Part shown: piece after piece, positions 5,615-38,496 of the stretch
Position numbering within the stretch: position 1 is the stretch's first letter
Layout: each line of letters begins with the position of its first letter
Origin: an uncultured beta proteobacterium
GTDB taxonomy: Bacteria; Pseudomonadota; Gammaproteobacteria; Burkholderiales; JACQAP01
NCBI GenBank assembly: GCA_963846655.1
Contig: CAWJWT010000002.1
Coordinates: 957,870-1,021,869, forward strand
Direction: 5' to 3'
Length of the DNA stretch: 64,000 bases
Notes under the pieces: generated by a model
Seen by the model: only the letters and a program-made list of their open reading frames with translations
What the model was told of the DNA's origin: nothing
The model's database searches: none
Program-made: the position numbers and the translations under genes

Positions 5615-5970
5615 GCGTGACGAGCGTGACGACGTGACGGCGTGACGATCGTAAGTGCCGTGAATATCGTGAATGTCGTGAATGTCGTGAATGTCGTGTC
5701 CCTGAAGGGATACCGGGCTAGCGCCCATAAATATCGTGTCCCTGAAGGGATACCGGGCTAGCGGAATGTCGCGGTCACCTGACATTAACGCCAACGCGCG
5801 ACCGGGCCAACGCCCGTAATGCCGGCTAAGCGGTGAATGCGCCGGCAGTGAAGGGTGTTTAGGTATTTACGACATTCACGACATTCACGATATTCACGAC
5901 ATTCACGGCCTTTACGACCGTCACGCCGTCACGACCGTCACGCGTCACCGTCACGTCGTCACCGTCACGC
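5615..5970. repeat. TCACG word-arm palindromic element (copy 1)
   Basis: Left arm has GTGACGN / GTGAATGTC tandem words. The core has 2x gtgtccctgaagggataccgggctagcg(cccataaat). The right arm has CATTCACGA x4 then CGTCACGN words, the reverse complement of the left arm. Confidence 0.9.
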
Positions 5971-5977
5971 GCAGTTC

Positions 5978-6976
5978 TCATCTCACCCTATATCCTCTCG
6001 GCGGCATGAACAGCGATTCATGCAAGGGCGCCATCGTGTGGACTTTCACTTCCGACATGAACGTAAAAAGCGGCTTGTCGCCGAGGTTTTTCAGGGAGTC
6101 GCCCGTCGAGCAGGCGTCGCCGGACAGGTGCCATTTGAGATGCATCAGCACCGGGTGGCCCTTCGCTTTGTGCAGCCCTTGCGCACCGCCAAGAAATTTC
6201 TTGCGATCCGCCGGGGTGACACTGGCATACAGGTAACGGTCGATCAACAAGGCGGCTTCGGAGGGCAGGAATTGCGCGTGGTTGGCGTCGGAGGGGCTGC
6301 CCAGAATCTTGTCGAGCGAGCTGGCGTAGGTTTGTTCGAGCGCGATTGCATCCTGCAGCGCCGGCGTCATGGGCGTGGTCCACAGGTCGATGCTGATGGT
6401 GCTGGTGGATTCGTGCGCGGCATTGTCGCGCAAGGTGACGATCCATTTGACGTCGTACTGTTCGGCGCTGAAGCCGTTGACATTGCGCTTGCGACCGGTT
6501 GGTTCCACGGAGAGGGCGCTCGACCCGACCTTGAGCCTGCATGCGGATTTCTGGCTTCGGGCCGCCGCGGTGAGTTGCCTGGTCGGTGATTTTGCCGGCG
6601 CTCGCTCGGCGCAACGGGCAAGCGGGCACTTGATGGCCTTGCGGTTGCTGGCGTCGAGCTTCAGGCCGATATTCTGGTCGAGCAGTTCGATGACGATGTC
6701 TTTTTGTTCCCCGGCCACCGAACTGGCACTGGAATTCCGCACGCTCGACTCGTTGCGCCGTTTATCCGCACGGGTGTAACTCACGCGGGTGCTTTCGAAT
6801 TCCGGGAAGTCGCGCGTGCCGCCGCTGACCACGCGCGTTTCCCGCACGGCGGTCGGATTCACCGGCGTGAAATCCGGGTCTTTCGAGGCGAGGCCCGAGC
6901 AAGCTGACAGGGCCAATGCAGCAAGGATCGGCGCCGCACAGGTCCCCCGGCGGGCGTTCCTGCTGCTTCCAACCAT
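5978..6976 (-). CDS. lipoprotein, unknown function
   Basis: Internal ATG gives MVGSSRNARRGTCAAPILAALALSAC (lipobox), 332 aa. The stop lies within 10 nt of the repeat arm. Confidence 0.6.
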   Translation of the reverse strand: MVGSSRNARRGTCAAPILAALALSACSGLASKDPDFTPVNPTAVRETRVVSGGTRDFPEFESTRVSYTRADKRRNESSVRNSSASSVAGEQKDIVIELLDQNIGLKLDASNRKAIKCPLARCAERAPAKSPTRQLTAAARSQKSACRLKVGSSALSVEPTGRKRNVNGFSAEQYDVKWIVTLRDNAAHESTSTISIDLWTTPMTPALQDAIALEQTYASSLDKILGSPSDANHAQFLPSEAALLIDRYLYASVTPADRKKFLGGAQGLHKAKGHPVLMHLKWHLSGDACSTGDSLKNLGDKPLFTFMSEVKVHTMAPLHESLFMPPRGYRVR

Positions 6977-7193
6977 GTAGGGTGCTCCCGATTGAGTTTT
7001 CGCGAGTTTACCCCCAGGTCCGGGTTCTGGCGCGCGCGATGTTTTCGCAACGAAAACGACCTGCAACGCAAACGACATTTGCGGAATAGATGTATTCTGC
7101 CGCCGGTTGTGCCCGTGTTGTTGAGGCCGGCCGGCGTTGCTGCTCGGTGAACCGGTCGGCGCGCAACGTCCACGAAAAATCCAGGGAGGCCAC

Positions 7194-7646
7194 ATGTTCG
7201 AATCCGTTCGCTTCGTCACCAATTTCCTGGCGCTTTACGCCGCCGCACCCGGTTCCGGCGCACAGGAGTGCAGCGGCACCATTACCGTCGAGGAGGCGCT
7301 CAAGGCCGAGGACGCCCGCTTCAAGGCGCAGATGGGCGCAGACGCCGCAGCCATGAACAAGCTGTTTGGCGACGATCTGGTTTATATCCACTCCAGTACC
7401 GTGGTCGATACCAAGGCGAGCTTCATCGAGTCGATTACTTCGGGCAACGTCAAATACCGGACGATGAGCCGGGGGAACCCGACAGTGCGCACCTATGGCA
7501 GCATGGCCATCGTCGCGGGCAGTGCCAAGTTTGAGGTCACCGTGAAAGGCGAAAACCGCACGCTGGACCTGCTCTATCACGCCATCTGGGCAAAACGCGC
7601 GGCGGGCATACAATTCGTCTCCTGGCAAGCAACCAAAAAGAGTTGA
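7194..7646 (+). CDS. SnoaL/NTF2-like (DUF4440-like) protein with signal peptide
   Basis: MFESVRFVTNFLALYAAAPGSGA signal. The ~130-aa body (EDARFKAQMGADAAAMNKLFGDDLVYIHSS...) is typical of the NTF2-like fold. Confidence 0.55.
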   Translation: MFESVRFVTNFLALYAAAPGSGAQECSGTITVEEALKAEDARFKAQMGADAAAMNKLFGDDLVYIHSSTVVDTKASFIESITSGNVKYRTMSRGNPTVRTYGSMAIVAGSAKFEVTVKGENRTLDLLYHAIWAKRAAGIQFVSWQATKKS

Positions 7647-7768
7647 ACGGGTCAACAGTCGATCGCGAACAAGTTGGGATCGGGTGTTTGCCCTTCGGTG
7701 ATGAAGGCGCGTGATTCTGGCAAGACACTACACGACCCCCCACAGGCAATTGGAAGCGAAACAGAACC

Positions 7769-8830: not shown

Positions 8831-8832
8831 AA

Positions 8833-11469
8833 GTGAACGAGCGCGACAACGAAGAAGAACTGTTGCGTTCGGTGGCGCTGCAGAATGCCCGAAGCATCCT
8901 CACGGCGCGCCAGCGAGCGGACGAGGAGGCCGCGAAAGCGCAAGAGATGCTGCGCGAATCGACGCGGCGGCTGCAACTGGCGCTGACGGCCGGCCAGTTG
9001 GGCGACTGGAGTTGGGAAGAAGGTACGGACCGGGTTGCGCTCAGCCCGCGCGCCGCCGAAATGTTCGGCCTTTCCGCAGAGCAGCCGGTGACCCGCGATC
9101 GGATCCGCCAGTCGCTGCACCCGGACGATGTCGAGCGCGCCCGGCAAGCCGTTGACAAGGCCCTCGCCGAGCGTTCGGTCTACAGTTGCGAATACCGTGT
9201 GCTGCACCCCACCCTGGGCCTGCGCTGGATTGCCGCGCGAGGACTCGGGAGCTATGCCCCGGATGGTTCGATGCTGGGCATGAGCGGTGTCTTCCAGGAC
9301 ATTACCGAGCGCAAGGCGTCCGAAGATTCCCTGCGGGATATGCAGAATCGTCTGCAGATGGCAATCGAAGCGGGGCAGATGGGGCATTGGGAATGGTTTC
9401 CGGCCACCGGCAAGGTGCATTGGTCTGCAGCGCTGGAGAATCTTCACGGGCTGACCGCCGGCAGTTTCGGCGGTGGTTTTGAGGATTTCAAACGCGATAT
9501 CCATCCCGAGGATCTGGACCGGGTGCTGGCTGCGATCCGGCACAGTGTCGATCGGCGCACTGACTATCGTGTCGAGTACCGCATCATCAGGCCGGATGGC
9601 CGACTCTGCTGGATTGAAGCGCGTGGAAGATTGTTTTTCGATGCGCAAGGCAATCCGGAACGCATGACGGGCGTTTGCATGGATGCCACGCTGCGCAAGG
9701 AGGCGGAAGAAAGGCTGCAGGACGAGACGCGCGTGCTCGAACTGCTCAACCAGACCGGGACGGTGCTCGCGTCCAAACTGGATTTACAGGCGCTGTTGCA
9801 GGCCGTCACCGACGCAGCCACGAAACTCAGCGACGCGAAATTCGGGGCGTTTTTCTACAACTCGACCGATGAAAAAGGCGACGCCTACATGCTATACACG
9901 CTCTCTGGCGCGCCCATCGAGGCTTTCGCGCGATTTGGCCAGCCGCGCGCAACGCCGTTGTTCGGCCCGACTTTCGGCGGCGCGGCGCCGATTCGCGTGG
10001 ACGACATTCTGCGCGATCCGCGATATGGTAAATGGGGTCCGCACCACGGCATGCCCGAGGGCCATCTACCCGTGCGAAGCTACCTGGCTGTGCCGGTGAT
10101 GTCTCGTTCCAGCGCGGTGTTGGGCGCGATGTTCTTCGGACATCCGGACACCGGCGTGTTCACCGAGCGAACGCAACGCCTCGTCGTCGGCATCGCCGCG
10201 CAGGCGGCGGTTGCCATCGACAACGCCCGGCTGTATGAGGCCGCGCAAAAAGCCGCCGACGAACGCGAGAAACTGCTGGAAAGCGAGCGCGTGGCGCGCG
10301 CCGACGCCGAGAACGCTAATGAACTCAAGGACGAATTTCTGGCCACGCTGTCCCACGAACTCAGAACGCCGCTGAATTCGATCCTGGGCTGGTCACAGGT
10401 GCTCAAGATGGGCGCCAACGCGCAAGACCTTCAGCGCGGCCTGGATGCCATCGAACGCAACGCGCGCGTTCAGGCGCAGCTCATCGAAGATCTGCTCGAC
10501 ATGAGCCGCATCATCTCGGGCAAGATGCGCCTCGACATCCAGTCGCTGGAGCCCATTTCCGTCATCGAGGCGGCGATCGAAACCATTCGCCCGGCGGCCG
10601 AGGCGAAGGAAATCCGCATCGAGAAATTGTTCGATCCGGGCGCGGGACCGATTTATGGCGACCCGAGCAGGCTGCAGCAGATCATCTGGAACCTGCTCTC
10701 CAATGCGGTGAAGTTCACGCCCAAAGCCGGCAAAATCCAGGTCCTGGTCGAGCGGGTCAACTCGCATATCGAGATCAGCATCGCGGATACCGGCATCGGC
10801 ATCAAACCCGAATTTCTGCCCTTCGTGTTCGAGCGTTTCCGCCAGGCCGACGCTTCGACCACGCGCGTGTTCGGCGGCCTGGGCCTGGGGCTCTCGATCG
10901 TCAAGCATCTGGCGGAACTGCATGGGGGGACTGTGCACGTGAAGAGCGCGGGCGAGGGGCAGGGCACGACTTTCGCGGTGCATTTGCCGCGCCCGGTCTT
11001 GCGTCGCAGTGAAGACGGCGCGGAACGCATCCATCCGACTACGTCCAGTGCGGCGGCAGTGGCCTTCAAACACTCCGATCTGTCAGGCCTCAAAGTGCTC
11101 GTGGTCGATGACGAAGCCGACGCGCGCGACCTTGTGCGGCACGTGCTGGCGGAGTGCGATGCGGAGGTCTACACGGCCAGTGTCGCCGAGGAAGCATTGG
11201 CGCTGGTCGAAAGCGCAAGGCCGCATGTGCTGATCAGCGATATCGGCATGCCGAATATCGATGGCTATGAATTACTGCGGCGCGTGCGCGCGCTCGGCGT
11301 GGCGAAAGGCGGGCAACTCCCCGCCATAGCGCTGACGGCGTTTGCACGCTCCGAAGACCGCACGCGGGCACTGCGTGCCGGTTTTCTGGTGCACGTGTCG
11401 AAGCCCGTCGAACCCTCGGAACTCGTGGCTACCGTGGCCAGCGTTGCGGGGCGGGCGGGAACGGACTAG
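8833..11469 (+). CDS. hybrid sensor histidine kinase (2x PAS/PAC, GAF, HisKA, HATPase_c, REC)
   Basis: 878 aa, intact. Motifs: H-box SHELRTPLNSILGW, N/G boxes NLLSNAVKFT / DTGIGI / GGLGLGLSIV, receiver VLVVDDEADARD...SDIGMPNIDGY...SKP. Confidence 0.9.
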   Translation: MNERDNEEELLRSVALQNARSILTARQRADEEAAKAQEMLRESTRRLQLALTAGQLGDWSWEEGTDRVALSPRAAEMFGLSAEQPVTRDRIRQSLHPDDVERARQAVDKALAERSVYSCEYRVLHPTLGLRWIAARGLGSYAPDGSMLGMSGVFQDITERKASEDSLRDMQNRLQMAIEAGQMGHWEWFPATGKVHWSAALENLHGLTAGSFGGGFEDFKRDIHPEDLDRVLAAIRHSVDRRTDYRVEYRIIRPDGRLCWIEARGRLFFDAQGNPERMTGVCMDATLRKEAEERLQDETRVLELLNQTGTVLASKLDLQALLQAVTDAATKLSDAKFGAFFYNSTDEKGDAYMLYTLSGAPIEAFARFGQPRATPLFGPTFGGAAPIRVDDILRDPRYGKWGPHHGMPEGHLPVRSYLAVPVMSRSSAVLGAMFFGHPDTGVFTERTQRLVVGIAAQAAVAIDNARLYEAAQKAADEREKLLESERVARADAENANELKDEFLATLSHELRTPLNSILGWSQVLKMGANAQDLQRGLDAIERNARVQAQLIEDLLDMSRIISGKMRLDIQSLEPISVIEAAIETIRPAAEAKEIRIEKLFDPGAGPIYGDPSRLQQIIWNLLSNAVKFTPKAGKIQVLVERVNSHIEISIADTGIGIKPEFLPFVFERFRQADASTTRVFGGLGLGLSIVKHLAELHGGTVHVKSAGEGQGTTFAVHLPRPVLRRSEDGAERIHPTTSSAAAVAFKHSDLSGLKVLVVDDEADARDLVRHVLAECDAEVYTASVAEEALALVESARPHVLISDIGMPNIDGYELLRRVRALGVAKGGQLPAIALTAFARSEDRTRALRAGFLVHVSKPVEPSELVATVASVAGRAGTD

Positions 11470-11475
11470 AAAAAA

Positions 11476-11650
11476 GGACTGAGTGATGAGTGCTGAGGAC
11501 TGAGTAAAAGCGGAATAATTTGCCGGTTTGTGCCTGGGCTGCTACCCAGTCCTCAGCACTCAGTCTTTAGCGCTCAGCACTCAGTCCTCAGCACTCAGTC
11601 CTCAGCACTCAGCACTCAGTCCTCAGCACTCAGTCCTCAGTCCTCAGTCC
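11476..11650. repeat. CTCAGTCCTCAG word-arm palindrome
   Basis: The left arm aggactgagtgatgagtgctgaggactgagt faces ~100 bp of actcagtcctcagcactcag words across a ~45-bp spacer. Confidence 0.85.
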
Positions 11651-11732
11651 TATTCTCTCCCCCATCCTCGCGGTTTTTTGGCACACTTCGGGTAGCGCGG
11701 CACGAACGCACGGCCGCTTCTTTGGATGAATC

Positions 11733-12476
11733 ATGGACGACAAGGCGGATATCCAGAAGGACATTTCCACGCGCTTGATGGCGGCGTTGCAGCAGGATGA
11801 ATTCATGCTGTATGCCCAAGCAATCGTGCCATTGAATCCGCAGCGCGACGATTACCCTTTCCAGGAGATCTTCGTGCGCTTCCGCGAGGAAGACGCCAAA
11901 CTACTCCCGCCCGGCATGTTCTTCCCGCTGCTGGCGGAATTCAACATGCTGCCATTCCTCGATCGCTGGGTCGTGAACCGGCTTGCGCGGTGGGTGCGCG
12001 GTGGATTGAAGTTCAAACCGGACTGGAAAGTCCCCCGCTGCAACATCAACCTCGCCGACGAGACGTTGCTCGATCCGAGTTTCGGCGATTACGTGCGCAA
12101 ATATGTCGAGGATTCCTATTTGTCGGGCGGCATCCTCGGCTTCGACATTTCATTTCAAAGCGCGCTGGCGAACCGGCAGGCTCTGCTGCGGCTCATGGCA
12201 GAGTTGCGCCCGCTGGGCTGCCCTTTTTCGATTGCGGGGTTCGATGGCAGCGATGCCATGGTCATGCAACTCGAAGGGCTGCAACCGGATTTCATCAAGG
12301 TCAGCGCAGTCAATATCGATCCGGGCAAAGTTACCGAGATCAATCGCATGTGCCATGGCCTGGGCGCCAAGACCATCGCCGAACACGTCGAGAACCCGCG
12401 CGTGCTCGAACACCTTCGCCGCTGCAAGATCGATTTCGGTCAGGGTTTTGCCATAGCGCCCGTCGAGGCGCTGTAA
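11733..12476 (+). CDS. stand-alone EAL-domain protein, degenerate motifs (EIFVR)
   Basis: 247 aa: QEIFVRFREED (EAL->EIF), LDRWVV, IAGFDGS (in place of DDFGTG), TIAEHVEN, DFGQGF. Paralogue of 28347..29090. Confidence 0.75.
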   Translation: MDDKADIQKDISTRLMAALQQDEFMLYAQAIVPLNPQRDDYPFQEIFVRFREEDAKLLPPGMFFPLLAEFNMLPFLDRWVVNRLARWVRGGLKFKPDWKVPRCNINLADETLLDPSFGDYVRKYVEDSYLSGGILGFDISFQSALANRQALLRLMAELRPLGCPFSIAGFDGSDAMVMQLEGLQPDFIKVSAVNIDPGKVTEINRMCHGLGAKTIAEHVENPRVLEHLRRCKIDFGQGFAIAPVEAL

Positions 12477-14269: not shown

Positions 14270-14512
14270 GAGGACTGAGGGGGAAAGAAGAGGACTGAGG
14301 ACTGAGGCTGAGGACTGAGTAAAAGGCGCTTGTGCTCAGAAGGCGGCGGCGCGGGAACGGTTCTCTGCTTGTTTAACCTCTTTACTCAGTCCTCAGTCAC
14401 TCAGCCCCCTAGTTCTTCCACTCAGTCCTCAGCACTCAGTCCTCAGTCCTCGTCCTTCGTCCTCGCTCAGCCCTCGTCCCTCATCCCTCGTCCCTCATCC
14501 CCCTGTCCCCCT
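14270..14512. repeat. CTCAGTCCTCAG / CCCTCGTCC word-arm palindrome
   Basis: The gaggactgagg... arm faces actcagtcctcag... words, running into ctcgtccctcatccctcgtccc words. Confidence 0.85.
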
Positions 14513-16224: not shown

Positions 16225-16472
16225 GATGACGTGACAGGTCGGACGCGTGAATGTCGTGAATTCGTGAAGATCGTGACGATCGTGACGTCGTGACGACGTG
16301 ACGGCGTGACGGCGAAAAGGCGCATGACGACGTGACAGGTCTTGACATGACCGTTAGCCCGTGTATCCCTTGCCGGCAACACGACATAATATGGAGCGAT
16401 AGTATCGCTCCGGCTGATCCCTTACGGGACCGTCACGCGTCACGTCGTTCACGATCTTCACGACATTCACGC
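16225..16472. repeat. TCACG word-arm palindromic element (copy 2)
   Basis: GTGACG/GTGAAT words form the left arm and CGTCACG/TTCACGA words the right arm. The core contains the ggagcgatagtatcgctcc hairpin. It starts directly after the stop at 16224. Confidence 0.9.
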
Positions 16473-16521
16473 CGACGAAGTCGGCTATCGCCTCTACGTC
16501 GTCGCGCTCGAACCCGACGTC

Positions 16522-27350: not shown

Positions 27351-27605
27351 TGCGGGAGGGGCGAGGGGCGCCCGACTAAAAGGGTTCCCACAGGGATTCA
27401 GGGTTGACGCCATAACTCCGACGTGCGGCGCACGTAGGGTATTCGCTGGGTACCGGGCTTCGCCCATAAGGGGCGAGGAGTATAGTTCGCAGCGAAGCGA
27501 TGCATCTTGTTTGTTATCGATCTTCGTTTTCTGTTCAACCTTCACTGTCGACCCAAACTTCGCACGCCGGGCGTTGTCCCATTCTTCCCCCCTATCGGAG
27601 ACATC

Positions 27606-28211: not shown

Positions 28212-28312
28212 CTGCAGGGGAGAGGGGTGAGGAGCGAGGGGGCTGAGCTATCTCTTTCCTCTTTAATCTTTCCTGTCCCTCGCCCCTCGCCACTTGCCCC
28301 TATTTCGCCTAC
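28212..28312. repeat. GAGGGG / CCCTCG word-arm palindrome
   Basis: ggggagaggggtgaggagcgaggggg faces ccctcgcccctcgcc across a ~35-bp spacer. Confidence 0.6.
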
Positions 28313-29119: not shown

Positions 29120-29318
29120 TACTCAGTCCTCAGCACTCAATCCTCAGTCCTGCCTTTTCACCCGGCCGGGCAAGCTTGTCCCCGTCGCGCTATGCGCGTA
29201 AGCCCGGTATCCCCTTGCGGGACACGACATTTATGGGCGAAGCCCTGTATCCCTTCAGTGACACGGCCTTCCCTCGTCACGATCGTCACGTCGTCACGCC
29301 GTCACGGCCGTCACGACA
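29120..29318. repeat. CTCAGT words followed by TCACG word-arm element (copy 5)
   Basis: actcagtcctcagcactcaatcctcagtcc, then two GCCCGGTATCCC..GGGACAC units and CGTCACG words. Confidence 0.85.
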
Positions 29319-29361: not shown

Positions 29362-29613
29362 GTGGACAATCGTCAAAAAACATATAGCGTCGCCGAGGCC
29401 AAGACCCATATGAGCGAAATGCTGGATCGGGCGGAGAAGGGCGAGAAGGTCGTGATTACCCGACGCGGGGAACCTGTTGTCCAGTTGGCCCCGGTCAAAT
29501 CGGTCACGCCCGGCATCGATTTCGCGCGTTTGCGTGCACTACGCGCAACCATGCCCAAGGCGAAGATATCGGCTGACAAACTCGTGCGCAAAATGCGGGA
29601 CGAGAAGTACTGA
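29362..29613 (+). CDS. type II antitoxin, Phd/YefM family
   Basis: 83 aa with YSVAEAKTHMSEMLDRAEKGEKVVITRRGEPVVQLAP. It sits directly upstream of a PIN toxin. Confidence 0.8.
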   Translation: MDNRQKTYSVAEAKTHMSEMLDRAEKGEKVVITRRGEPVVQLAPVKSVTPGIDFARLRALRATMPKAKISADKLVRKMRDEKY

Positions 29614-30042
29614 TTGATCTACCTGGACACCAATTTGGTGGTCGCACTCTGCGCCGCGGAGCGCGATTCCGATCGGGTAGAGTCCGCGCTTGCCGCGGCC
29701 AGCGGGGAGGCCTTCTGCATAAGCGAATGGACCCGCGTGGAATTCACCAGCGCGGTCGGGATCAAGTATAGAAATCGGGAACTGACCGAACCGTTGGCGC
29801 GCCGGGCGCTTGCTGACTATTACGAAGCGTTCGAAGCCGGAGTCACGGTCATCACGCCTTCACGCGACGATTACATTCTCGCAGCGTTTTATCTCCAGGA
29901 TCTGCGAAGTGGGCTTCGTGGCGGCGACGCGCTCCATATCGCCGTTGCGGTGAATGCAAAGACAACCCGTCTTCTGACGCTCGACCGCATCTTTGTGAAG
30001 GCCGCGCGTGGCCTCGAGGTTCCGGTCGAACTTCCCTGGTAG
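29614..30042 (+). CDS. vapC: type II toxin, PIN domain (VapC)
   Basis: 142 aa with IYLDTNLVVAL (first acidic residue) and ...GGDALHIAVA...LLTLD. It abuts the antitoxin stop. Confidence 0.8.
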   Translation: MIYLDTNLVVALCAAERDSDRVESALAAASGEAFCISEWTRVEFTSAVGIKYRNRELTEPLARRALADYYEAFEAGVTVITPSRDDYILAAFYLQDLRSGLRGGDALHIAVAVNAKTTRLLTLDRIFVKAARGLEVPVELPW

Positions 30043-30167
30043 TTCCCACGCCAGTGAAGTCGGGCACAATTGTTCCGTCATGACCGTTATGGGCAACGGC
30101 ACTGCGAATCGACGAGAATCCAGATCGGTTATGCAGGCAGTTCTAATTGCCCGAGCATACGGGGTGC

Positions 30168-30306
30168 TCATTTATGGGCGCTAGCGGGGTTATGGGCAAG
30201 GCGGGAATCCCTTTACGGACACGATCAGTATCACGATATTCACGGACCTTCCCTCGTCACGACCGTCACGATCGTCACGTCGTCACGACCGTCACGCCGT
30301 CACGGC
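30168..30306. repeat. TCACG word-arm element (copy 6)
   Basis: ATTTATGGGCGCTAGCGGGG..., then ATTCACGG and CGTCACGA words. Confidence 0.85.
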
Positions 30307-30363
30307 CCTTCCGCGGCACCCGCAAAAGAGCGTAACATGTACATCTTATCTGTACATACCGGG

Positions 30364-30615
30364 ATGCGAGCCATGTCTTCCTCCGTAAACGTCACCCAGC
30401 TCCGTCAGAATCTTCCCGAGTACCTGAAGCAGGTTCGGGAGGGAAAGGAAGTCGAAGTCACCGTGCATGGCAAAGTCATCGCCCGCCTGGTCCCGGAAGC
30501 CGCAAAAAGCGATCGGGCAAAGAAAAGGCTCGCCGAACTTCGCAAGACCGCCAAGGTAGGCGACGTGACCTCTCCAGCGGGCGCAGCCTGGACGGGCGAT
30601 CGTGATCATCTGTGA
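30364..30615 (+). CDS. type II antitoxin, Phd/YefM family
   Basis: M(RAM)SSSVNVTQLRQNLPEYLKQVREGKEVEVTVHGKVIARLVP. It overlaps the following PIN gene by 14 nt. Confidence 0.8.
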   Translation: MRAMSSSVNVTQLRQNLPEYLKQVREGKEVEVTVHGKVIARLVPEAAKSDRAKKRLAELRKTAKVGDVTSPAGAAWTGDRDHL

Positions 30616-30994
30616 CACCCACGTGCTCGTCTTCGACGCCCTCGCACCCGCGCGGCTATCGGCAAAGGCGCGCCGGCGGCTGAAGGATGGAGAGTCTGCG
30701 GGGCAGTTGGCCTGCGCAGATATCTCCCTCTGGGAAATTGCCATGTTGATTGCGAAACGGCGACTGCAAATCGACGAGGAATCCGGATCCTTTATCCAGG
30801 CAGTCCTGGATGCCCGGGGCTACCGGGTGCTTCCCATAACGTCGGAAATCGCAGCCCTTTCGCAAAGCGCGGATTTCACCCAGAAGGATCCCGCCGATCG
30901 CCTGATTGCGGCAACCGCCCTTGCCGCCGGCGCGGAACTGCTTTCCGCCGATCAGGCAATGAAGGGCATACCGGGCTTGAAGCTGGTCTGGTAG
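30602..30994 (+). CDS. vapC: type II toxin, PIN domain (VapC)
   Basis: 130 aa with MIICDTHVLVF and ...DPADRLIAATALAAGAELLSADQAM. Confidence 0.8.
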   Translation: MIICDTHVLVFDALAPARLSAKARRRLKDGESAGQLACADISLWEIAMLIAKRRLQIDEESGSFIQAVLDARGYRVLPITSEIAALSQSADFTQKDPADRLIAATALAAGAELLSADQAMKGIPGLKLVW

Positions 30995-31015
30995 CGCCGC
31001 ATAGAGATCACTATC

Positions 31016-32567
31016 GTGCGACAAGACGAACTGCGCTCCATACTGCTGGTTAAGGCGATCGAGGAGGTCGACCAGGCGGGAACGCTCATGCCGCTGGCGG
31101 ACCGAGCCGCTGCCACACGGGAAGCCCGGCGTGCCGCTGGCGACGTGGCCCCACCCCGCGACGGTATCGAGCAGGGGAAGCTCTCGGAAGCGGCGCAGCG
31201 AATGGGGGTCGAGCGCTCGAGAATTCTGGTGGGAAAGATCGTTGCGCGGCATCCTTTCGTCGATACCGTTTTGAACCTGACCGTTGGTCCCGCCTGGGTG
31301 GGTTGGGTGGTTGTGGCCCTCGGTCTCGTCCTCGGATTCTCGCTCTCTGCCCTGGACGGCACGCGACACATCAACATCCTCGCCTTTCCGCTCCTCGGCG
31401 TGGTGCTCTGGAATCTCGCGGTCTACATGGCGACCTTCGTCAACTGGGTACGTGCGCGCTCAACGACAAAGCAACCGCAGCGAGGGCTTGCCCGGAGCAC
31501 TGACAAACTTCGGGATGCGCCTCGTGGCCCGGCAGTTGGCGAAGGCCGCTGCCTACAACGTGCCGCTCGCCGAGGCACTCCGCCGCTTCACCAGGGAATG
31601 GTTCGAGGTGGCGAGGCCATTGCTGGTGGCGCGTGCAACCCGCCTCTTTCATTTTTCGGCGGTAGCCGTCGGGATCGGCCTCATCGCGGGACTCTATGTG
31701 CGCGGCATCGCGTTCGACTACCTGGCCGGCTGGGAGAGCACCTTCCTCAACGCCTCGAGTGCCCGTGCGCTCCTCTCGGTCATCTATGGCCCGGCATCGT
31801 TCATCGCGGGGATTTCCATTCCCGACGTCGCCTATCTCGAGTCGATTCGCTGGAAGGGTGGCGCGGGAGGCGAGCAGGCGGCGCGCTGGATTCATCTCAT
31901 CGCGGCGACGGTGGCGCTTTACGTCGTGCTGCCGCGCCTGGTGCTTGCTCTGGCAGGGACGATTTCCATCGCGCGATGGTCGCGCCGCGCGCCGCTTCCG
32001 GCCTCTGTCTCCGCGTACTTCCGCGTGGCCTTCGGAGCGCTGGCCGGCGTGGTGGGCCGCGCCTTGGTCACGGTCATCCCCTACGCGTACGAACCTTCCG
32101 CGGCCGCGCGCGCGGGGCTGCGCACGTTGCTGCCCGCGGCGCTCGGAGAAAGTGTCACCCTCGATGCACGCGCGCCGGTGCGTTACGGCGAGGAAGACGA
32201 ATTCCTCCAGGGCCTGGGTAACGCGGGCAAACCGGACATCGTGGTGCTGTTGTTCAATCTCGCTGCCACGCCGGAAGAGGAGAACCATGGTGCCTTGATC
32301 GCCGGCGTGCGCGACGGGCTCACCGCGAAGCGCCTCGGCCAATTGCTCGTGCTGGTAGATGAAGCGTCCTATGCATCGAGGATGGGGGCAAACGGCGGCG
32401 CGAACGCGCGCGTACCAGAACGTCGCCACGCATGGCAGCAGTTCGTCGCGGCCCGGGGCATGGTCGCGTGCATCGTGAATCTCGCGACAGCCGAAGGCAA
32501 TGGGGTGCCGCCTCCCGAGCAAACCGATTGCATCCGCAGCGCCCTGTGGCAGCCCGATCCGGCATGA
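31016..32567 (+). pseudogene. DUF2868-like membrane protein, one frameshift (~31,450-31,500)
   Basis: ORF 31016.. (…NILAFPLLGVVLWNLAVYMATFVNWV) continues in ORF 31284..32567 (LTNFGMRLVARQLAKAAAYNVPLAEALRRFTREWF...). The DUF2868 assignment is from memory of the conserved pairing with the DUF3482 GTPase. Confidence 0.6.
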
Positions 32568-34073
32568 ATCAGCCCGCGACGCCCGCCGATGGAGCGGCCA
32601 CGATCAACCTCAGCCTGATCTCGCACACCAATGTCGGCAAGACCACGCTGATGCGCACGCTCACCCGCCAGGACATCGGCGAGGTGGCGGACCGTCCGCA
32701 TGTGACAGAAGAGGCCGAAAGCCACGTGCTGATCGACACACCGCAGGGCGACGCGCTGCGCCTGTGGGATACGCCCGGGTTCGGTGACAGCGCGCGGCTG
32801 CTCAAACGCCTGCGCGCCAACGCGAACCCGGTTGGCTGGCTGCTGACCCAGGTTTGGGACCGGTTTACCGACCGACCCTTCTTTTGCAGCCAGCGGGCAA
32901 TCCGCAACGCGCGTGACGAAAGCGACGTGGTCCTGTATCTCGTCAATGCCGCGGAGGATCCGACGTCCTCGACCTACGTGGAGAAGGAATTGGAGATCCT
33001 CGGCTGGGTCGGCAAGCCCGTCGTGGTACTGCTCAACCAGCTGGGACCCGCGCGCCCGAAGGAAGCGGAAGCGGCCGAAGAGGCGCTGTGGAGCCGGCAC
33101 CTGGCCGCGCATGTCGGCGTCGCGCGGGGCAATCACGCTGGATGCTTTCGCGCGATGCTGGGTGCAGGAAGACAGGCTCCTGGGCGTGGTTCGCGACGTG
33201 CTAAGCGCGGAGAAGCGTCAATCTTTCGAGCGATTGCGCCACGCCTGGCGCAAACGAAACGTGGAAGTGTTCGACGCCGCGATGCACTCGGTCGCCACCC
33301 AGCTCGCCGCGGTCGCAACAGACCGGGAAACCGTCGGCAAGCAAAGCATCCCGCAGCGAGCGCGGCGTTGGCTCGCCTCCCTCGCGACCGACCACGCGAA
33401 ACCCGATCTCGCCACGGAGCACGCGATGAACACGCTCGCAAGCCGGCTCGATCTGGCGGTGCGCGCGAACACCGATCGGTTGATCGCGCTGCACGGCCTC
33501 TCGGGTCGTGCGAAGGCGGCCATCCTCGCGCGTCTCGCCGGACAATTCCAGGAAAACAAGCCCATGGACGTCGCGACCTCTGGCGCCCTGGGCGGAATGG
33601 TGAGTGGCGCCCTGGGCGGCCTCGCCGCGGATCTCGCTTCGGGCGGACTTACCGTCGGCGCCGGCGCGCTCATCGGCGGCATTGTCGGCTTGCTCGGTGG
33701 AGGCGGTGTTGCGCGCGCGTATAACCTGGCACGTGGCACCGAGGACGGCCATGTGCGCTGGTCGGCGGAGTTCCTTACACAGCGCTTCGTCGCGGCGATC
33801 CTGCGCTATCTGGCCGTCGCCCACTACGGGCGCGGGCGCGGCGATTGGGTCGAGGCCGAGTACCCGGCGCACTGGCAGCCTCTGGCGAACGAGGTCGCCG
33901 CGCAGTATCGAAGTGAGCTCGAGGCCACCTGGGCCGCAACTGAGCGCGCGAGCGCCCACGAGGTGGAAAAACAACTGACACCCATCGTTCGCAAGGCGGT
34001 GCGGGAAGTCCTGGAACGGCTTTATCCCGAAGCGCGGGAAATGTTCGACTCTGCGCGCCAACCGGGCCATTGA
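32564..34073 (+). pseudogene. GTPase with DUF3482-like C-terminal region, one frameshift (~33,125)
   Basis: ATGA overlap with the upstream gene. P-loop SHTNVGKTTL, G3 DTPGFGD, LLNQLG. The C-terminal part (ORF 32913..34073) has a Gly-rich membrane segment GALGGMVSGALGGLAADLASGGL. Confidence 0.7.
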
Positions 34074-34099
34074 GCGGCCAACTGACACCGCATTACGCC

Positions 34100-34175
34100 C
34101 GCTTGATTGGCGACTCGCGCGCGATATCGTTGGGCAAGGCGTGGTCACGTATATAGGGTCCTGTTCTGGTTCAAG
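34100..34175 (+). pseudogene. internally deleted remnant of a DUF5615-type toxin gene
   Basis: gattggcgactcgcgcgcgatatcgttgggca matches 34,853-34,885. aggcgtggtcacgtatatagggtcctgttctggttcaagctga matches 35,118-35,161. Confidence 0.7.
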
Positions 34176-34211
34176 CTGACTCGCGCTGCTAACTCCCCGG
34201 TATGTAGTCGC

Positions 34212-34537
34212 GTCCGTCACGTCGTCACGACATTTATGGGACGTTGGCCCGGTTATGGTCGCAGACCGGTACCCTTTAGGGACGCGACATTTATGGTCGA
34301 CAGACCGGTATACCCGCAAGGGTGCACGATATTCACGACACTCACGATATTCACGACATTCACGGCTTTCCCCGACACGACCGTTATGGGCGACGCCCGG
34401 TACCCCCTCGGGGGGCGCGATATTTATGGGCGTCAGCCCGGTATCCCTTTAGGGACATGACATTCACGGTATTCACGACATTCACGATATTCACGGCTTC
34501 GTCGTCACGACCGTCACGTCGTCACGCCGTCACGACC
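34212..34537. repeat. TCACG word-arm element (copy 7, about 5 hairpin units)
   Basis: Multiple (A/T)TTATGG..GCCCGGTA(T/C)CC..GGGAC units alternate with ATTCACGA and CGTCACG words. Confidence 0.9.
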
Positions 34538-34616
34538 CTTGTTTCCCCTTGTGGGGGTACGCCCGTCACGGCTCTTAAGGTTGCACGCCCCCGCGAGTTA
34601 AGGGTAGGCTAACCGC

Positions 34617-34829
34617 ATGGATAAACCCGTTATTTCCTGCAATCCCGATGTGATGGGCGGCACTCCGGTTTTTTCCGGCACGAGAGTGCCGGTTCAGACT
34701 CTGCTTGACTATCTTGAAGCTGGGGACTCAATTGACGATTTTCTGGCTGGCTTCCCTTCCATCAATCGAGAACAGATCATCAGTTTTCTTGAGCAGGCGA
34801 AAGACCGTCTGGTCGCCACTGCCCATTGA
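34617..34829 (+). CDS. DUF433-family antitoxin-like protein
   Basis: 70 aa with NPDVMGGTPVFSGTRVPVQTLLDYLEAGDSIDDFLAGFPSI. Confidence 0.75.
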   Translation: MDKPVISCNPDVMGGTPVFSGTRVPVQTLLDYLEAGDSIDDFLAGFPSINREQIISFLEQAKDRLVATAH

Positions 34830-35161
34830 GAATATTTGTCGACGAATGCGTTGATTGGCGTCTCGCACGCGATATCGTTGGGCACGAGGTCAAGACCGCG
34901 CGCCAGATGGGTTGGACAACTCTAAAAAACGGCGAACTGCTTGCGCTTGCATCCAAACAGTTCGAGGTCTTTGTCACTGTCGATCGCAATCTCTCGTTTC
35001 AGCAGAATCTTCCCGCCTTCGATATCGCCGTCGTCATACTGCGATTCAGGTCAAACAGGCTGGGCGACCTTCAACAGCTGGTGCCGGACCTGCTTACCTA
35101 TCTTGAAACGGCGCAGCTTGGCGTGGTCACGTATATTGGGCCCGATTCTGGTTCAAGCTGA
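34826..35161 (+). CDS. DUF5615-family (Mut7-C/PIN-like) toxin-like protein
   Basis: 111 aa with MRIFVDECVDWRLARDI. It has a 4-nt overlap with the DUF433 gene. Confidence 0.7.
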   Translation: MRIFVDECVDWRLARDIVGHEVKTARQMGWTTLKNGELLALASKQFEVFVTVDRNLSFQQNLPAFDIAVVILRFRSNRLGDLQQLVPDLLTYLETAQLGVVTYIGPDSGSS

Positions 35162-35189
35162 CTCGCGCAGCTAATTCCCCGGTATGTAG

Positions 35190-35402
35190 TCACGTCCGTC
35201 ACGTCGTCACGATTGTCACGACATTTATGGGCGTTAGCCAGGTATCCCTTTTGGGACACGACATTCACGATATTAACGGCTTCGTCGTCACGACCGTCAC
35301 GTCGTCACGTCGTCACGTCATTCACGACATTCACGATATTTATGGGCGTCAGCCCGGTATCCCTTTAGGGACACGACCGTCACGTCGTCACGTCGTCACG
35401 AC
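35190..35402. repeat. TCACG word-arm element (copy 8)
   Basis: The same junction sequence as at 34,175-34,230, followed by two hairpin units and CGTCACG words. Confidence 0.9.
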
Positions 35403-35468
35403 CAATTTCCTTGAGTCCTGCCCTGGAATTCGCTAAAGTAAGGATTCCTTACTTTCTTTAAAAAGCCA

Positions 35469-35705
35469 ATGCTAGCCAAGCTGACGTCCAAGAACCAGCT
35501 TACCCTGCCCAAGAGCGTGACCACCGCAGTGGGAGCCGCCGAGTATTTCGAAGTGGAGGCCAAGGCCGGCCAGATTATCCTGACCCCGGTGCGCATACAG
35601 CGGGCTGGGTCGGTACGAGCCAAACTGGCGGAGCTCGACATCACCGAGCAGGACGTCACCGACGCCGTGACCTGGGCACGCAAGCCCAAACGCCGGCCGA
35701 AATGA
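35469..35705 (+). CDS. AbrB/MazE/SpoVT-family antitoxin
   Basis: 78 aa with MLAKLTSKNQLTLPKSV. Confidence 0.75.
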   Translation: MLAKLTSKNQLTLPKSVTTAVGAAEYFEVEAKAGQIILTPVRIQRAGSVRAKLAELDITEQDVTDAVTWARKPKRRPK

Positions 35706-36139
35706 CACGCGCGCCACGCGTCGTGTTCGATACGAACGTCGTGCTCTCGGCCCTTGTGTTTACGCACGGCAGATCCGTTCTCGTCCGCGAAGCCTGGCAG
35801 GCTGGGCGTTGCAAGCCCTTGGCTTCCAAGGCCACAGTGGACGAACTGGTACGAGTGCTCGGTTATCCCAAGTTCAAGCTTGCGGCCCAAGATCAGCGCG
35901 AGCTACTTGGCGACTACTTGCCTTATTGCCAGATCTTGGCTATCCCGCAGAAGGTTCCCAAGACGCCCCCGTGTCGGGACGTTTTCGATGTGCCGTTTCT
36001 GCAACTCGCGATTGTGGGGAAGGCTGACTTTCTGGTCACCGGCGATCAGGACCTGCTGGAGATCAAGAGCAAGCTTCTGTGCCCCGTCGTCACTCCTGAG
36101 GTGTTTCTTGGCGGTTCGCCAGGGAGCAGGGGGTCGTAA
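35702..36139 (+). CDS. PIN-family toxin (TIGR00305-like)
   Basis: 145 aa with RVVFDTNVVLSALVF and ...DVPFLQLAIVGKADFLVTGDQDLL. It has a 4-nt overlap with the antitoxin. Confidence 0.75.
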   Translation: MTRAPRVVFDTNVVLSALVFTHGRSVLVREAWQAGRCKPLASKATVDELVRVLGYPKFKLAAQDQRELLGDYLPYCQILAIPQKVPKTPPCRDVFDVPFLQLAIVGKADFLVTGDQDLLEIKSKLLCPVVTPEVFLGGSPGSRGS

Positions 36140-36184
36140 GCATTGGCCTCACCTCAGCATGGGCGGTTAGCCTGGAATCCCCCG

Positions 36185-36312
36185 GCCCTTCTGCCCTCTG
36201 TCTTCAATTCTCTGTCCTCTGACGCAGCACGCAGCACCCAGCACTCAACACGCAGCACCCTGCATCCAGTTCTCTCTTCCTCAGTCCTCAGTCCTCGTCA
36301 CTCGCTCCTCGG
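36185..36312. repeat. mixed simple-word repeat (CCCTTCTGCC, GCAGCAC, CCTCAGT words)
   Basis: cccttctgccctctg..., gcagcacgcagcacccagcac..., cctcagtcctcagtcctcgtc. Confidence 0.6.
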
Positions 36313-37341
36313 CGCCGCCGCCCTATAGTCCTGCATGATCACGGCCATCACATCGCCCTTGCGCACGCGGCCGGAACCGGGCGCCATCCAGACATAGCCG
36401 TCGAGCGGAAACTCGATCGGCTTCGGCTCGCGCGCCCATTCCTCGATGAAGTGCAGGGTGCCGGCCAGCTTGCCGGCGCGCACCTCCTGCCCGGGCAGGA
36501 ATGTCGGCTCGAACAGTCCGTCGCTCGGCGCGAACAGATACGAGCGCTGGTCGCGCACCTGCATCTGCCGGGTGCGCCCGCCGCCGGGGTGCGAGGTGTC
36601 CGGCTTGCCGTCGATCATGCCCAGGCCCTTCAACACATTGTCGAGGCCGCGCTCGGCATAGCGCAGGCCCTCGACGCTGACGCGCCCGTAGCCGCCGATC
36701 TCTGAGGAGATCGACAGCGCACCGTGGCGCTCGGCTGCGGCGGCCACCGTGCCGCCCTCGTCCACACCCCAGAACACCACGTTGTAGGGCGCGGCGAAAT
36801 TCTCCGTGAGTGCCTGGGTGCGCGCCATGACCTGGGGATCGTCCACCCAGTGCATGATCGTGCACAGCGCGGCTTCCATGGAATTGCCGGCGGCATGCAC
36901 GTCGACCGACACCTCGACCTGCGGCATGATCACCGTGTCGATGAAGTGCGCTAGCATCTGGCAGAAGCTGCCGCGCGCCTCTCCCGGCATGCAGCGATTG
37001 AAGTCGCGCTCGTCGATCGGGCACATCCGCCGCCCGGCGAGCGCGGCGGGCAGGTCCACCGCGGGCATCAGGATGAGCTTGCCGCGCAGGCTTTGCGGAT
37101 CGAGCCGGCGCGCCAGCCGTGAGCCCGCGATCTGGCCCTCGTACTCGTCGCCGTGCACGCCGCCGGTGAACAGCACCGCCGGCCCCTTGCCGCCATTGAT
37201 CACCGCGATCGGCACCTCGATGGTCGACCACGCGCCGCCGTCGCGCGACTGCGGCACGCGCAGATAGCCGAGCTGCTTGCCCGGCTTGTCGAAATCGATC
37301 TCATGAAAAATCCGGCTGCGGGTGGCGTGGGTGTCTGGCAT
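36298..37341 (-). CDS. succinylglutamate desuccinylase/aspartoacylase (AstE/AspA) family Zn-hydrolase
   Basis: 347 aa from MPDTHATRSRIFHEIDF, with Zn motif FTGGVHGDEYEGQ. Confidence 0.8.
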   Translation of the reverse strand: MPDTHATRSRIFHEIDFDKPGKQLGYLRVPQSRDGGAWSTIEVPIAVINGGKGPAVLFTGGVHGDEYEGQIAGSRLARRLDPQSLRGKLILMPAVDLPAALAGRRMCPIDERDFNRCMPGEARGSFCQMLAHFIDTVIMPQVEVSVDVHAAGNSMEAALCTIMHWVDDPQVMARTQALTENFAAPYNVVFWGVDEGGTVAAAAERHGALSISSEIGGYGRVSVEGLRYAERGLDNVLKGLGMIDGKPDTSHPGGGRTRQMQVRDQRSYLFAPSDGLFEPTFLPGQEVRAGKLAGTLHFIEEWAREPKPIEFPLDGYVWMAPGSGRVRKGDVMAVIMQDYRAAAPRSE

Positions 37342-37539
37342 GGCGCGGTCTCCTCGTTGGAGCCGCCAGCATAGCGAAGGGTGTCTCCTTCTGCCTGGAG
37401 GCGAGCGGGGTGGCCGAGTTATTGGTGCGTAGCCTGTGGGGGATGGCAAACTGCTCCGCCGGTCGTTCAGGACCGTTTCTCTTCGCCATTTCTCGAGGCG
37501 GCGTCTCTATGAGGCTGATCTAGTGCCCGATTGCCACAG

Positions 37540-37675
37540 TTCACGACATTTATGGGTGGGCGTCCCGGTATCCCTTTAGGGACACGACATTCACGATTCA
37601 CGGCTTCACCCCGTCACGTCGTTATGGTCGAAGACCGGTATCCCCTTGTGGGACACGTCGTTACGACCGTCACGT
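37540..37675. repeat. TCACG word-arm element (copy 9)
   Basis: CACGACATTTATGGGTGGGCGTCCCGGTATCCCTTTAGGGACACGACATTCACG..., plus a second unit. Confidence 0.85.
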
Positions 37676-37761
37676 TGCGGACCGCCCTTGCCGCCGGCGC
37701 GGAACTGCTCTCCGCCGATCAGGCAATGAAAGGCATACCGGGGGTGAAGGTGGTGTGGTAG
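37676..37761 (+). pseudogene. 3' remnant of a vapC paralogue
   Basis: ~85 bp encoding ...ALAAGAELLSADQAMKGIPGVKVVW*, nearly identical to 30,911-30,994. Confidence 0.8.
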
Positions 37762-38169
37762 CGGAACCCCCGTGGGGATCCCCGAAATGCGGGGCACGGC
37801 CGAGCGGCGAAGCCATACAAGTCTAGAGACATAGGTAACACCAGAGTTCAAACACATGGGTTACGACTTAGCTTTGGCGACCGGGGGCAGCCCGGTAGCT
37901 GGTCACTTTTCTTGCGCGGCCAAGAAAAGTAACCAAAAGAAGGCCGCCCCTGGTTTCGCGCCCCTTGTCACGGGGTGCCCCTGCGCTGCCTGCCTCGATG
38001 TGGCGACTGCGCAACTCGACCTGGCGAGGCACACACAACGTGCCTCACTGCGGGACTCGAACAGTGCTCGTCGACTTCCCCACATCGAGTCGAGCTGCTC
38101 GGCGCGCCTAAAGGGGAAAAAGCGAAGGTCAAAGGCCTACAGTCTGAGGTCTCAGCTCTGACTTTTCTC

Positions 38170-38496
38170 CTATGGTCGAATACCCTTTGTGCGCAACGCG
38201 TCGGAGTATCCGTTTAGACCGGTTACCCTTTAGGGATCCCTTGTGGAGCACGACCGTCACGTTTGTCACGATCGTTATGGGCAATAGCCCGGTTATCGCA
38301 GCGCGTGTACCCCTGTGGGTATCCCCTTGTGGGACACGACCGTCACGCCGCCACGTCGTCACGTCGTCACGGCCTTTTTCCGCTTAGACTTCTCCGCAAA
38401 CAAGAAACGCGGGAGTCAGTCGCTTGAGCTTCGTCACGATCGTCACGTCGTTATGGGCGTAGCCCGGTATCCCCTTGTGGGACACGACCGTCACGG
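38170..38496. repeat. TCACG word-arm element (copy 10, the last copy in the window)
   Basis: Several TTATGG..GCCCGGT(T)ATC..GGGAC units plus CGTCACG words. No further copies occur to the right. Confidence 0.9.

Follow-up and report, generated by a model that had tools for sequence, protein, structure and literature searches.

Small dispersed repeats (SDRs) of heterocyst-forming cyanobacteria, reportedly described by Elhai and colleagues in 2008, are said to be non-coding units of less than about 30 nucleotides (nt) that nest within one another, have hairpin potential and are linked with tandem heptamer arrays. How DNA pieces of fewer than 30 bases multiply in genomes has, to our knowledge, been an open question since that description. 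One study states that these repeats are thought to be mobile (PMC2884548), and another places the insertion of SDR5 between the third and the fourth nucleotide of HIP1 (PMC4390886). Tandem heptamers are also described in Xanthomonas, where GGGAATC repeats are about 90% intergenic, lie on average 28 nt from the upstream open reading frame (ORF), form 70-75 convergent (inverted) pairs per genome, differ greatly in length and sequence from one close relative to the next and do not occur on plasmids (Rehm et al., 2015, PMC4692102); the GGGGAYT heptamer arrays of Nostoc are the 'STRR' repeats (PMC4692102). In this work we analyzed a window of 64,000 nt from contig CAWJWT010000002.1 of an uncultured soil or sediment bacterium, whose intergenic regions carry arrays of short TCACG-type words together with a small double-hairpin unit, named here module 1.

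Judged by description, the closest analogue of module 1 would be the cyanobacterial SDRs, since a size below about 30 nt and base-precise insertion, recognized from filled and empty sites, are found in both. Set side by side on the same basis, the two differ in host phylum (uncultured Burkholderiales and other betaproteobacteria-like contigs for module 1), presumably in sequence, in the bipartite, covarying two-hairpin structure of module 1 and in its target, which is mainly a T at position -1. Module 1 would represent a second, independent mobile-looking element of less than 30 nt, in a phylum other than the cyanobacteria; apparently undescribed, it appears to be among the smallest mobile-looking DNA elements seen.

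Boundaries, targets and structure of module 1

Module 1 is a discrete unit of 27-31 nt made of two successive hairpins, A and B (TATGGSC-loop-GSCCGG|TAYCCC-loop-GGGR); the length of 45 bp given in the initial annotation of this DNA had taken in flanking words. A covariance model (CM) built from 60 variants retrieved, at E<1e-6, 16 copies from the window, all of them within 5,699-38,481, with 14 on the + strand and two on the - strand. The first clue was the 9-mer word CATT|CACGA, which equals the left plus the right flank of the unit (CATT-TATGG...GGGA-CACGA). With one single boundary pair, the exact joined 9+9-nt flanks were found elsewhere in 1.6 Mb of data from related loci for 93 of 158 simple modules, and no other boundary shift was seen save diagonal shifts that describe the same junction where boundary bases repeat. 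In a stricter scan in which the 3' end was floated, 138 modules were validated by an exact empty site, at 50 distinct junctions. These modules were 27-37 nt long (27 nt being commonest and 31 nt next) and ended in GGA or GGG, the longest few being composites with extra half-modules or flanking words. When 40+40 nt of flank were compared, 70 modules had an empty counterpart of at least 85% identity across the junction, many of them 95-100% identical over 80 nt. No target duplication was seen in the filled/empty pairs, for example where GTAGGGCGGAT|GAGCCGAAGG is compared with the copy that holds the module. Among the 2,181 indels of 15-60 nt with 10+10-nt shared flanks that an unbiased scan returned, 377 were the module, more than in any other recognisable class; the remaining 1,804 events were left unclassified.

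Base preferences around the 50 junctions were pronounced. Position -1 was T in 49 of them and position -2 was G in 31, A in 10 and T in 7, while position +1 was C in 29, A in 19 and never T, and position +3 was C in 39, which gives the consensus G-T^[C/A]-A-C. The contexts into which module 1 is inserted comprise GTAG-type repetitive extragenic palindrome (REP) hairpins of other genomes (GTAGGGCGGAT^...^GAGCCGAAGG and GTAGGGTGGAT^...^AAGCGTAGCGCATCC), other hairpins (TGTGCGAAT^...^AAATTCGCA), word arrays of CCTCGCAC and CCCTTCAC besides those of TCACG words, a second module (CGTCGGAGT^...^ACCCTTTTAG) and module 1 itself (GCCCGGT^...^ATCCC). Taken over different organisms, they span at least three REP-like families plus another repeat in the related locus L148. 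Copies are inserted at word boundaries, where the 5' arm of a REP-like hairpin meets its loop, at the junction of module 2 and between the two hairpins of module 1, the last of these giving A-A-B-B nesting. The segment 23,337-23,399, for instance, reads A1 A2 B2 B1, and such nesting accounts for the compound units in the window. The second module (module 2), about 35-36 nt long (TACCCTACGYGC-GTA-GCACGTCGGAG|TACCCTTTTA), is found within the hairpin A loop of module 1; module 1 is in turn inserted into it at CGGAGT^ACCC, and in the related locus L135 module 2 is nested several levels deep. The initial annotation had conceived a single element, with word arms around a conserved hairpin core. This is not supported, because the hairpin unit is independent of the words, with other contexts, exact empty sites and insertions into itself.

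Both hairpins are kept by compensatory base changes. Hairpin A (GGSC/GSCC) was 98.3% paired across the 60 variants, a value reached by none of 500 shuffles, and slid controls gave 16-52%; its third pair was G:C in 39 variants, U:A in 17, C:G in three and A:U in one. An independent count of 71 distinct A hairpins gave 89% pairing, which none of 2,000 shuffles reached. The final base of the module takes part in closing hairpin B; from the outermost pair inward, pairing is 89, 94, 77 and 71%, and compensated variants of this hairpin include TCCC/GGGA, TGCC/GGCA and CCCGC/GCGGG.

At 3400-6600 of L148 (Ga0209824, from a lower-GC metagenome organism), a segment of 2.9 kb with FlhG-like and FliA-like genes is bordered by a repeat of some 120 nt in which module 1 is present, and GTAG-type REPs, some with the module and some lacking it, occur close by.

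Word arrays and palindromic spacers

Ten loci had been listed as carrying words plus the double-hairpin unit. The sequence, spaced-word statistics, Tandem Repeats Finder (TRF) and the CM agree with that description, TCACG/CGTGA word arrays being present at 10 of 10, and add an eleventh locus (27,370-27,470, - strand) missing from the list. TCACG-N4-TCACG (spacing 9) was observed 46 times against 0.19 expected and TCACG-N3-TCACG (spacing 8) 30 times against 0.20 expected; none of 100 shuffles reached either count, and all these matches fall inside 5,616-38,447. TRF returned periods of 8, 9 and their multiples at every locus, and TCACG and CGTGA together number 199 in 1-39,000 versus 41 in 39,001-64,000. 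Words of period 8 (CGTCACGN) and period 9 (CATTCACGA) form the runs, and copies of the hairpin unit (TTATGGGCG-NNN-GCCCGGTATCCC-TTNA-GGGACACGA) lie between them; CACGNCGT, CACGAYCGT and CACGAYATT are among the words. By a rough tally on crude gene calls, the element loci occupy about 3.2 kb of the first 38.7 kb, or approximately one third of its non-coding DNA. Three TCACG words spaced 9 and 8 nt also occur within a PIN (vapC-like) coding region (29843-29864).

That whole loci are palindromes, as had been proposed, holds for those at 5,615 and 16,225, the only two long palindromes among the TCACG loci. The other eight are one-directional with the TCACG sense on the + strand and, read from the sequence, most of them end about 45-85 nt before the + strand start codon that follows. 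The spacer at 5,615, between convergent genes, contains an inverted repeat of 65 nt (5633-5697 and 5869-5933) that is 92% complementary, with the word variants in mirrored order, and folds into a nearly continuous single stem of -220.8 kcal/mol (shuffle mean -134.9, z = -17). The palindrome at 16,225 is weaker (inverted arms 16262-16287 and 16438-16463). At neither locus is the centre the hairpin core, and by eye the centre at 5,615 has no evident likeness to those of its relatives L218 and L199.

Orthologous spacers in relatives retain the inverted-arm architecture with different words. The 5,615 spacer has CGTGAAT and ATTCACG arms in L218, where the genes are about 73% identical, and AGAGGTGAAAGT / ACTTTCCTCT arms in L199; that at 16,225 has GAGAGGAAAG / CTTTCCTCTC arms in L110. 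The modules differ as well, the 5,615 spacer bearing two on the left arm (- strand) in the window and one on the right arm (+ strand) in L218. Comparison of L135 with window positions 30,324-30,999 gave a 95% identical phd-like antitoxin gene with a TGTACA-N7-TGTACA operator and entirely different repeats upstream. Arrays of CCCTCNN heptamers occur in L227 and L228, those of L228 forming an inverted pair directly after a GST gene. The close relatives L102-L104, reached through the amidase gene (90-91% amino-acid identity), have no element and are not syntenic downstream, and for this reason they were unusable for empty-site analysis.

A second family of 7-mer words within the window likewise forms several inverted arms around a unique centre, adjoining gene ends (Table 1); within the window, no insertions of module 1 were found in these 7-mer arrays. 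Inverted arrays with a 20-nt period at 62924-63154, in the right part of the window, indicate that the word-arm architecture is not limited to the left part.

The initial annotation considered such arms unusual; inverted arrays of short words have, nevertheless, a precedent in Xanthomonas (PMC4692102). Like the heptamer arrays of Xanthomonas and Nostoc, the word arrays of the window are tandem, intergenic, near gene 3' ends, in some cases arranged in inverted pairs, and variable between relatives. They differ in that the words are of 8-9 nt (TCACG type) besides 7 nt, do not form G-quadruplexes and are colonised by module 1. Given this match to the description by Rehm et al. (PMC4692102), the word arrays are a variant of a known, poorly understood phenomenon.

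Two other explanations of the words were discarded. Target-duplication footprints were ruled out by the insertions into REP contexts, which lack any duplication, and CGTC-tagged REPs (for CGTCACG words) by the 8-9-bp stems and CCA tails of such REPs (PMC3733652).

Proposed mobility of module 1 and competing explanations

We consider it probable that the window contains two layered kinds of selfish or neutral repeat, the word arrays and an inserting module that is moved by an unlinked enzyme. In the first layer, microsatellite-like arrays of 7-9-nt words fill free space beside gene ends and would grow and shrink by replication slippage, and the inverted arms could come from intra-strand template switching of the quasi-palindrome kind, so that the whole spacer becomes one giant hairpin. 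As module 1 is far too small to encode a protein, its copying would require an enzyme encoded elsewhere. It may move as single-stranded DNA by means of an unlinked HUH/Y1-type enzyme, similar to those of IS200 or to a REP-associated tyrosine transposase (RAYT). This type of enzyme is favoured by the hairpin at each end, the lack of target duplication, the insertion 3' of a defined base and the targets in hairpin loops and junctions. With their many GT^CAC sites, the word arrays might serve as landing pads. A bolder version, to which we give slightly less than an even chance, is that module 1 belongs to a new class of ultra-small transposable elements of Betaproteobacteria, in which an unlinked enzyme of the host or of an insertion sequence (IS) recognises the two 4-bp hairpins and joins the module after any exposed T, nesting and slippage-prone words building about one third of this lineage's non-coding DNA (rough tally). 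The base-exact boundaries, the simple after-T rule, the covarying hairpins and the hundreds of metagenome copies make the question of the enzyme testable.

Several observations weigh against transposition by such an enzyme. The initial annotation had suggested looking for an associated RAYT gene, and neither the window nor the 1.6 Mb of related loci contains such a gene linked to the module. In the window, neither phmmer with E. coli RayT nor an HUH-motif regular expression applied to all six-frame ORFs detected a Y1 or RAYT gene; all that phmmer plus the HUH-motif search yielded was two genes, each accompanied by its own inverted repeats. In L175 and L216, the RAYT-like genes (NF047646, E ~1e-21, under the curated cut-off) carry on their flanks inverted repeats of their own that differ from module 1, e.g., GGGTCAGGCCTATACTTTATAG at L175, and the Y1_Tnp gene of L227 has flanks without the module. 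Nor did the 1.6 Mb contain a parent IS bounded by hairpins A and B, or any A half running into unique DNA. Target specificity covers only about 1-3 bases and is looser than that of IS200/IS605, and this loose target together with the tiny size argues against a simple IS200/IS605 analogy. Module orientation does not follow GC skew (135 vs 143) and leans only slightly to the gene strand (156 vs 122). The indels also include half-modules, and A halves do not always match B halves in number (L184; window 34,232-34,282), which implies that local duplication and deletion also shape the clusters. Most empty sites are paralogous copies of larger repeats and not orthologous sites, and part of the spread of the module could come from hitch-hiking on larger repeats. 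Finally, the fold stability of single units is unremarkable (z -0.5 to -1.9); as this thermodynamic stability is not significant, covariation was used as the structural evidence.

Elements of the IS200/IS605 type have a hairpin near each end, produce no target duplication and insert 3' of a short specific sequence, a tetra- or pentanucleotide; the ends that they need are roughly an order of magnitude longer than module 1. An IS200/IS605 miniature would share with module 1 the terminal hairpins and the missing target duplication, but the target of module 1 is fixed only at T -1, with G preferred at -2, and no IS200-type TnpA gene adjoins the modules in the window or the related loci. MITEs (miniature inverted-repeat transposable elements) have terminal inverted repeats and a target-site duplication, whereas the ends of module 1 (TATGG.../...GGGA) are not inverted and there is no duplication. 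BOX elements of Streptococcus pneumoniae are modular, with a variable copy number of an internal module of about 45 nt. Module 1 resembles them in its modular build with variable copy number but lacks their fixed boxA and boxC ends; BOX, for its part, is neither nested nor combined with word arrays and is not similar to module 1 in sequence. No Rfam family (release 15) matched at gathering score over the whole window, E-value mode at the element loci gave only weak, unrelated matches, and a literature string search for the module and the TCACG words returned primers and other unrelated matches only. A pervasive intergenic repeat lacking an Rfam match and the defining features of REPs, bacterial interspersed mosaic elements (BIMEs) or MITEs, as originally proposed, is supported.

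A true REP or BIME system, in which a RAYT dedicated to the hairpin unit, with its gene at another place on the 1.04-Mb source contig, would mobilise this unit as a REP and the words would be inter-REP motifs, seems unlikely to us. The size of 27-31 nt, the extragenic location, the high copy number and the covarying hairpins do resemble REPs, and RAYT-like proteins (NF047646, E 1e-21) and Y1_Tnp are encoded in related genomes. Short extragenic hairpin repeats of high copy number, in mosaics with other motifs and candidates for a trans-acting HUH/Y1 enzyme on single-stranded DNA, are also what REPs, REPINs and BIMEs are (PMC3116915, PMC3733652). By the criteria of PMC3733652, however, a REP bears a conserved unpaired GTAG (or CGTC) tag at the end of its palindrome, whereas module 1 begins with TATGG in 60 of 60 aligned variants and carries neither tag. 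It forms two separate 4-bp hairpins instead of one imperfect palindrome with a longer stem (put at 8-13 bp or at about 5-13 bp), and its copies are mostly co-oriented or nested (14 + versus 2 - in the window) and not the inverted doublets that prevail among REPs and REPINs. Moreover, it is inserted as a foreign piece into genuine GTAG-type REPs of other genomes without being one itself, and the RAYT-like genes found are unlinked to it and have other repeats as flanks. Equally improbable is an origin without transposition, by slippage, unequal recombination, gene conversion and precise deletion between short repeats, with the module as a passenger of larger repeats. The half-modules and words that appear as indels, the unequal counts of A and B halves, the many empty/filled pairs inside the same larger repeat families and the evident expansion and contraction of the word arrays are all in line with it. 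Conversion, on the other hand, requires flanking homology, which the contexts of the module do not share; the same 27-31-nt piece with base-identical boundaries is found in several unrelated contexts in different organisms, and a joining chemistry of a defined kind is suggested by the T at -1, present in 49 of 50 junctions.

Selection for a cis-acting structure, such as RNA hairpins that protect 3' ends or insulate convergent genes, protein-binding arrays or DNA cruciforms, has a similarly low probability as a replacement for mobility, with which it may coexist. Giant hairpins beginning a few bases past stop codons, a palindromic architecture retained at orthologous spacers despite different words, and base pairs that co-vary would fit such a role, and roles of this kind are reported for REP/BIME (PMC3733652). 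Yet the repeat content at orthologous sites has wholly changed at 95% flank identity, most loci are one-directional arrays and not hairpins, the elements contain no terminator or sigma-70 promoter consensus, one array destroyed a gene start, and nesting and insertion into other repeats look selfish. An assembly artefact of collapsed or chimeric repeats, or the attC sites of an integron cassette array, is hardly credible, even if the elements bracket small same-direction toxin-antitoxin cassettes and the family stops where base composition changes. An artefact, which the initial annotation had kept as a way for its proposal to fail, is contradicted by many assemblies, made independently in different projects, in which this module and these words recur, and most loci lie between ordinary chromosomal genes. 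The core consensus of attC is RYYYAAC / GTTRRRY. No R''/R' core sites were found, GTTATGG does not fit GTTRRRY, and no integrase was detected among the ORFs scanned against Pfam, which were a part of all ORFs.

Distribution, effects on genes and setting of the window

Scanning metagenomes with the pattern TTATGGGCG-N2-4-GCCCGGTATCCC located module 1 in at least 120 contigs; it also occurs in several metagenome-assembled genomes (MAGs) of Burkholderiales. The unit together with TCACG words was found in only a few MAGs of the genome-collection scan; the carriers include the Burkholderiales isolates 12C16O_168h_50_unf_bin_22 and SMAG_U11139 and the 'uncultured bacterium' s9_101. A MAG labelled Bordetella parapertussis carries the unit with CCTTCAC as words. 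BLAST against plasmids gave no match, and a scan of viral contigs gave one. Named protein homologues of the window come from MAGs of 'Burkholderiales bacterium' and 'Casimicrobiaceae bacterium'.

The abutment to stop codons noticed at three sites was confirmed in the sequence: words begin directly after the stop at 16,224, the TCA in the final word of the 23,318 locus (23,495-23,499) serves as the stop of the - strand cupin gene (23,495-23,497), and 8 nt separate the end of the final word at the 5,615 locus from the stop at 5,978. The supposed loss of an N-terminus at 16,522 is confirmed by comparison with homologues. Homologues of this GIY-YIG-like protein have 222-232 aa and start roughly M-x-D-D-E-x-A-x-G-L-Y-R-V-Y-V-V; the window retains (16402-16522) ...HADEVG-YRLYVVALE in frame upstream of the annotated Met, TCACG words make up the codons before it, and a canonical start codon is missing upstream of the YRLYVVALE stretch. 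The right arm of the 16,225 locus replaces the start region of this gene. Elements of this kind create long spurious ORFs and supply or overwrite stop and start codons, as with the cupin stop and the lost start, and the resulting hypervariability of spacers matters for annotation and binning of these MAGs.

Coordinates of all features are collected in Table 1. The left 38.7 kb of the window is ordinary chromosome with a GC content of 0.60-0.63. It encodes an enolase-superfamily enzyme, a PAS/GAF histidine kinase, EAL proteins, a universal stress protein (Usp), an amide/urea-type ABC transporter with an FmdA-like amidase, a cupin, periplasmic binding proteins, GST and several toxin-antitoxin pairs. 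From 38.7 kb there follows a type I restriction-modification system split across frames by frameshifts, and GC rises near 40 kb from about 0.62 to 0.67-0.75. The segment 38700-57953 resembles a defence island that was acquired and contains pseudogenes or frameshifts due to sequencing. The abrupt stop of the family at 38,496 is real, and judging from the GC rise and the frameshifted genes it falls near the start of DNA that is probably foreign.

Table 1. Repeat loci and other features of the window, with sites in related loci (prefix L).
Feature	Coordinates	Strand	Remarks
Left word arm, palindromic spacer of convergent genes (CGTGACGN + CGTGAATRT words)	5614-5698	-	
Module 1 at word boundary (TATGGGCGCTAGCCCGGTATCCCTTCAGGGA on - strand)	5699-5729	-	CM 42.9 bits, E 8e-13; empty-site match exists
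Second, truncated module 1	5739-5779	-	Weak CM match, E 0.72; read from sequence
Right word arm (ATTCACGAC and CGTCACGN words)	5865-5971	+	Ends 8 nt from - strand gene stop
Second palindromic locus	16228-16475		CGTGA arm 16228-16311; centre of degenerate module remnants; TCACG arm 16433-16475
One-directional locus	23318-23499	+	Module 1 nested in module 1 (outer 23337-23399, inner 23354-23382); simple module 23404-23434, then words
Locus in divergent-gene spacer	24070-24390	+	Module 1 with module 2 in hairpin A loop (24080-24145); word arrays and simple module 24277-24307
Eleventh locus	27370-27470	-	Module 1 with nested module 2, without word arrays; 27442-27468 E 8e-7
Two module 1 copies, then CGTCACGN words	29186-29317	+	Copies 29191-29221 and 29232-29261; upstream of phd/vapC pair
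Module 1 holding truncated inner module, then words	30168-30305	+	Upstream of phd-like gene
Largest locus	34201-34570	+	Five modules (one nested pair) interleaved with 9-mer and 8-mer arrays
Words, module, words, module, words	35186-35402	+	Modules 35226-35256 and 35341-35371
Two modules and short word runs	37540-37676	+	Modules 37551-37582 and 37623-37652
Last locus	38171-38496	+	Module 1 with module 2 inside (38171-38236); compound module 38276-38337; words; module 38452-38481; family ends here
Module 2 sites	24090-24125; 27390-27440; 38181-38215; L135 1000-1300 and 2900-3100		
7-mer word-arm palindrome (AGGACTG / CAGTCCT, CAGCACT)	11455-11671		Arms 31 nt, 97% complementary
7-mer word-arm palindrome (GAGGACT / AGTCCTC, CCTCGTC)	14270-14501		
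Other 7-mer word arrays of the second family (GAGGACT/AGTCCTC, CAGCACT, CCCTCGC)	28216-28301; 29121-29150; 36222-36311		
20-nt-period inverted arrays (TTGCGTCTC... / GAGACGCAA...)	62924-63154		Arms 53 nt, 77% complementary; high-GC right part
Toxin-antitoxin cluster	29362-36139		Each pair bracketed by element loci
Phd/PIN pair	29362-30042		
phd-like gene	from 30373		ATG at 30373
DUF433/DUF5615 pair	34617-35161		
ORF of unassigned family + PIN_3	35469-36139		
hsdM	38822-40836		Broken type I restriction-modification region
hsdR pieces	42731-43087; 43752-44366; 45096-45731		
Hsp70-like ORF	53787-55223		
DDE transposase gene	56745-57953		
RAYT-like/Y1 genes	L175 4340-5400 (oriented); L216 850-1700; L227 17729-18421		

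Some minor features of the window were also recorded. A tandem repeat of 41 nt at 2786-2879 (2.3 copies, 87% matches) has no relation to the TCACG family, and a weak match to the c-di-GMP-I-GGC riboswitch at 37872-37988 on the - strand (24.9 bits versus a gathering score of 59, E 0.0097) is probably due to chance. Two remnant duplications were noted, 34138-34230 vs 35120-35212 (92%) and 30914-30996 vs 37681-37763 (93%). The EAL-domain paralogues at 11865-12475 and 28482-29089 are 71-75% identical at the DNA level, and word arrays precede or follow both of them.

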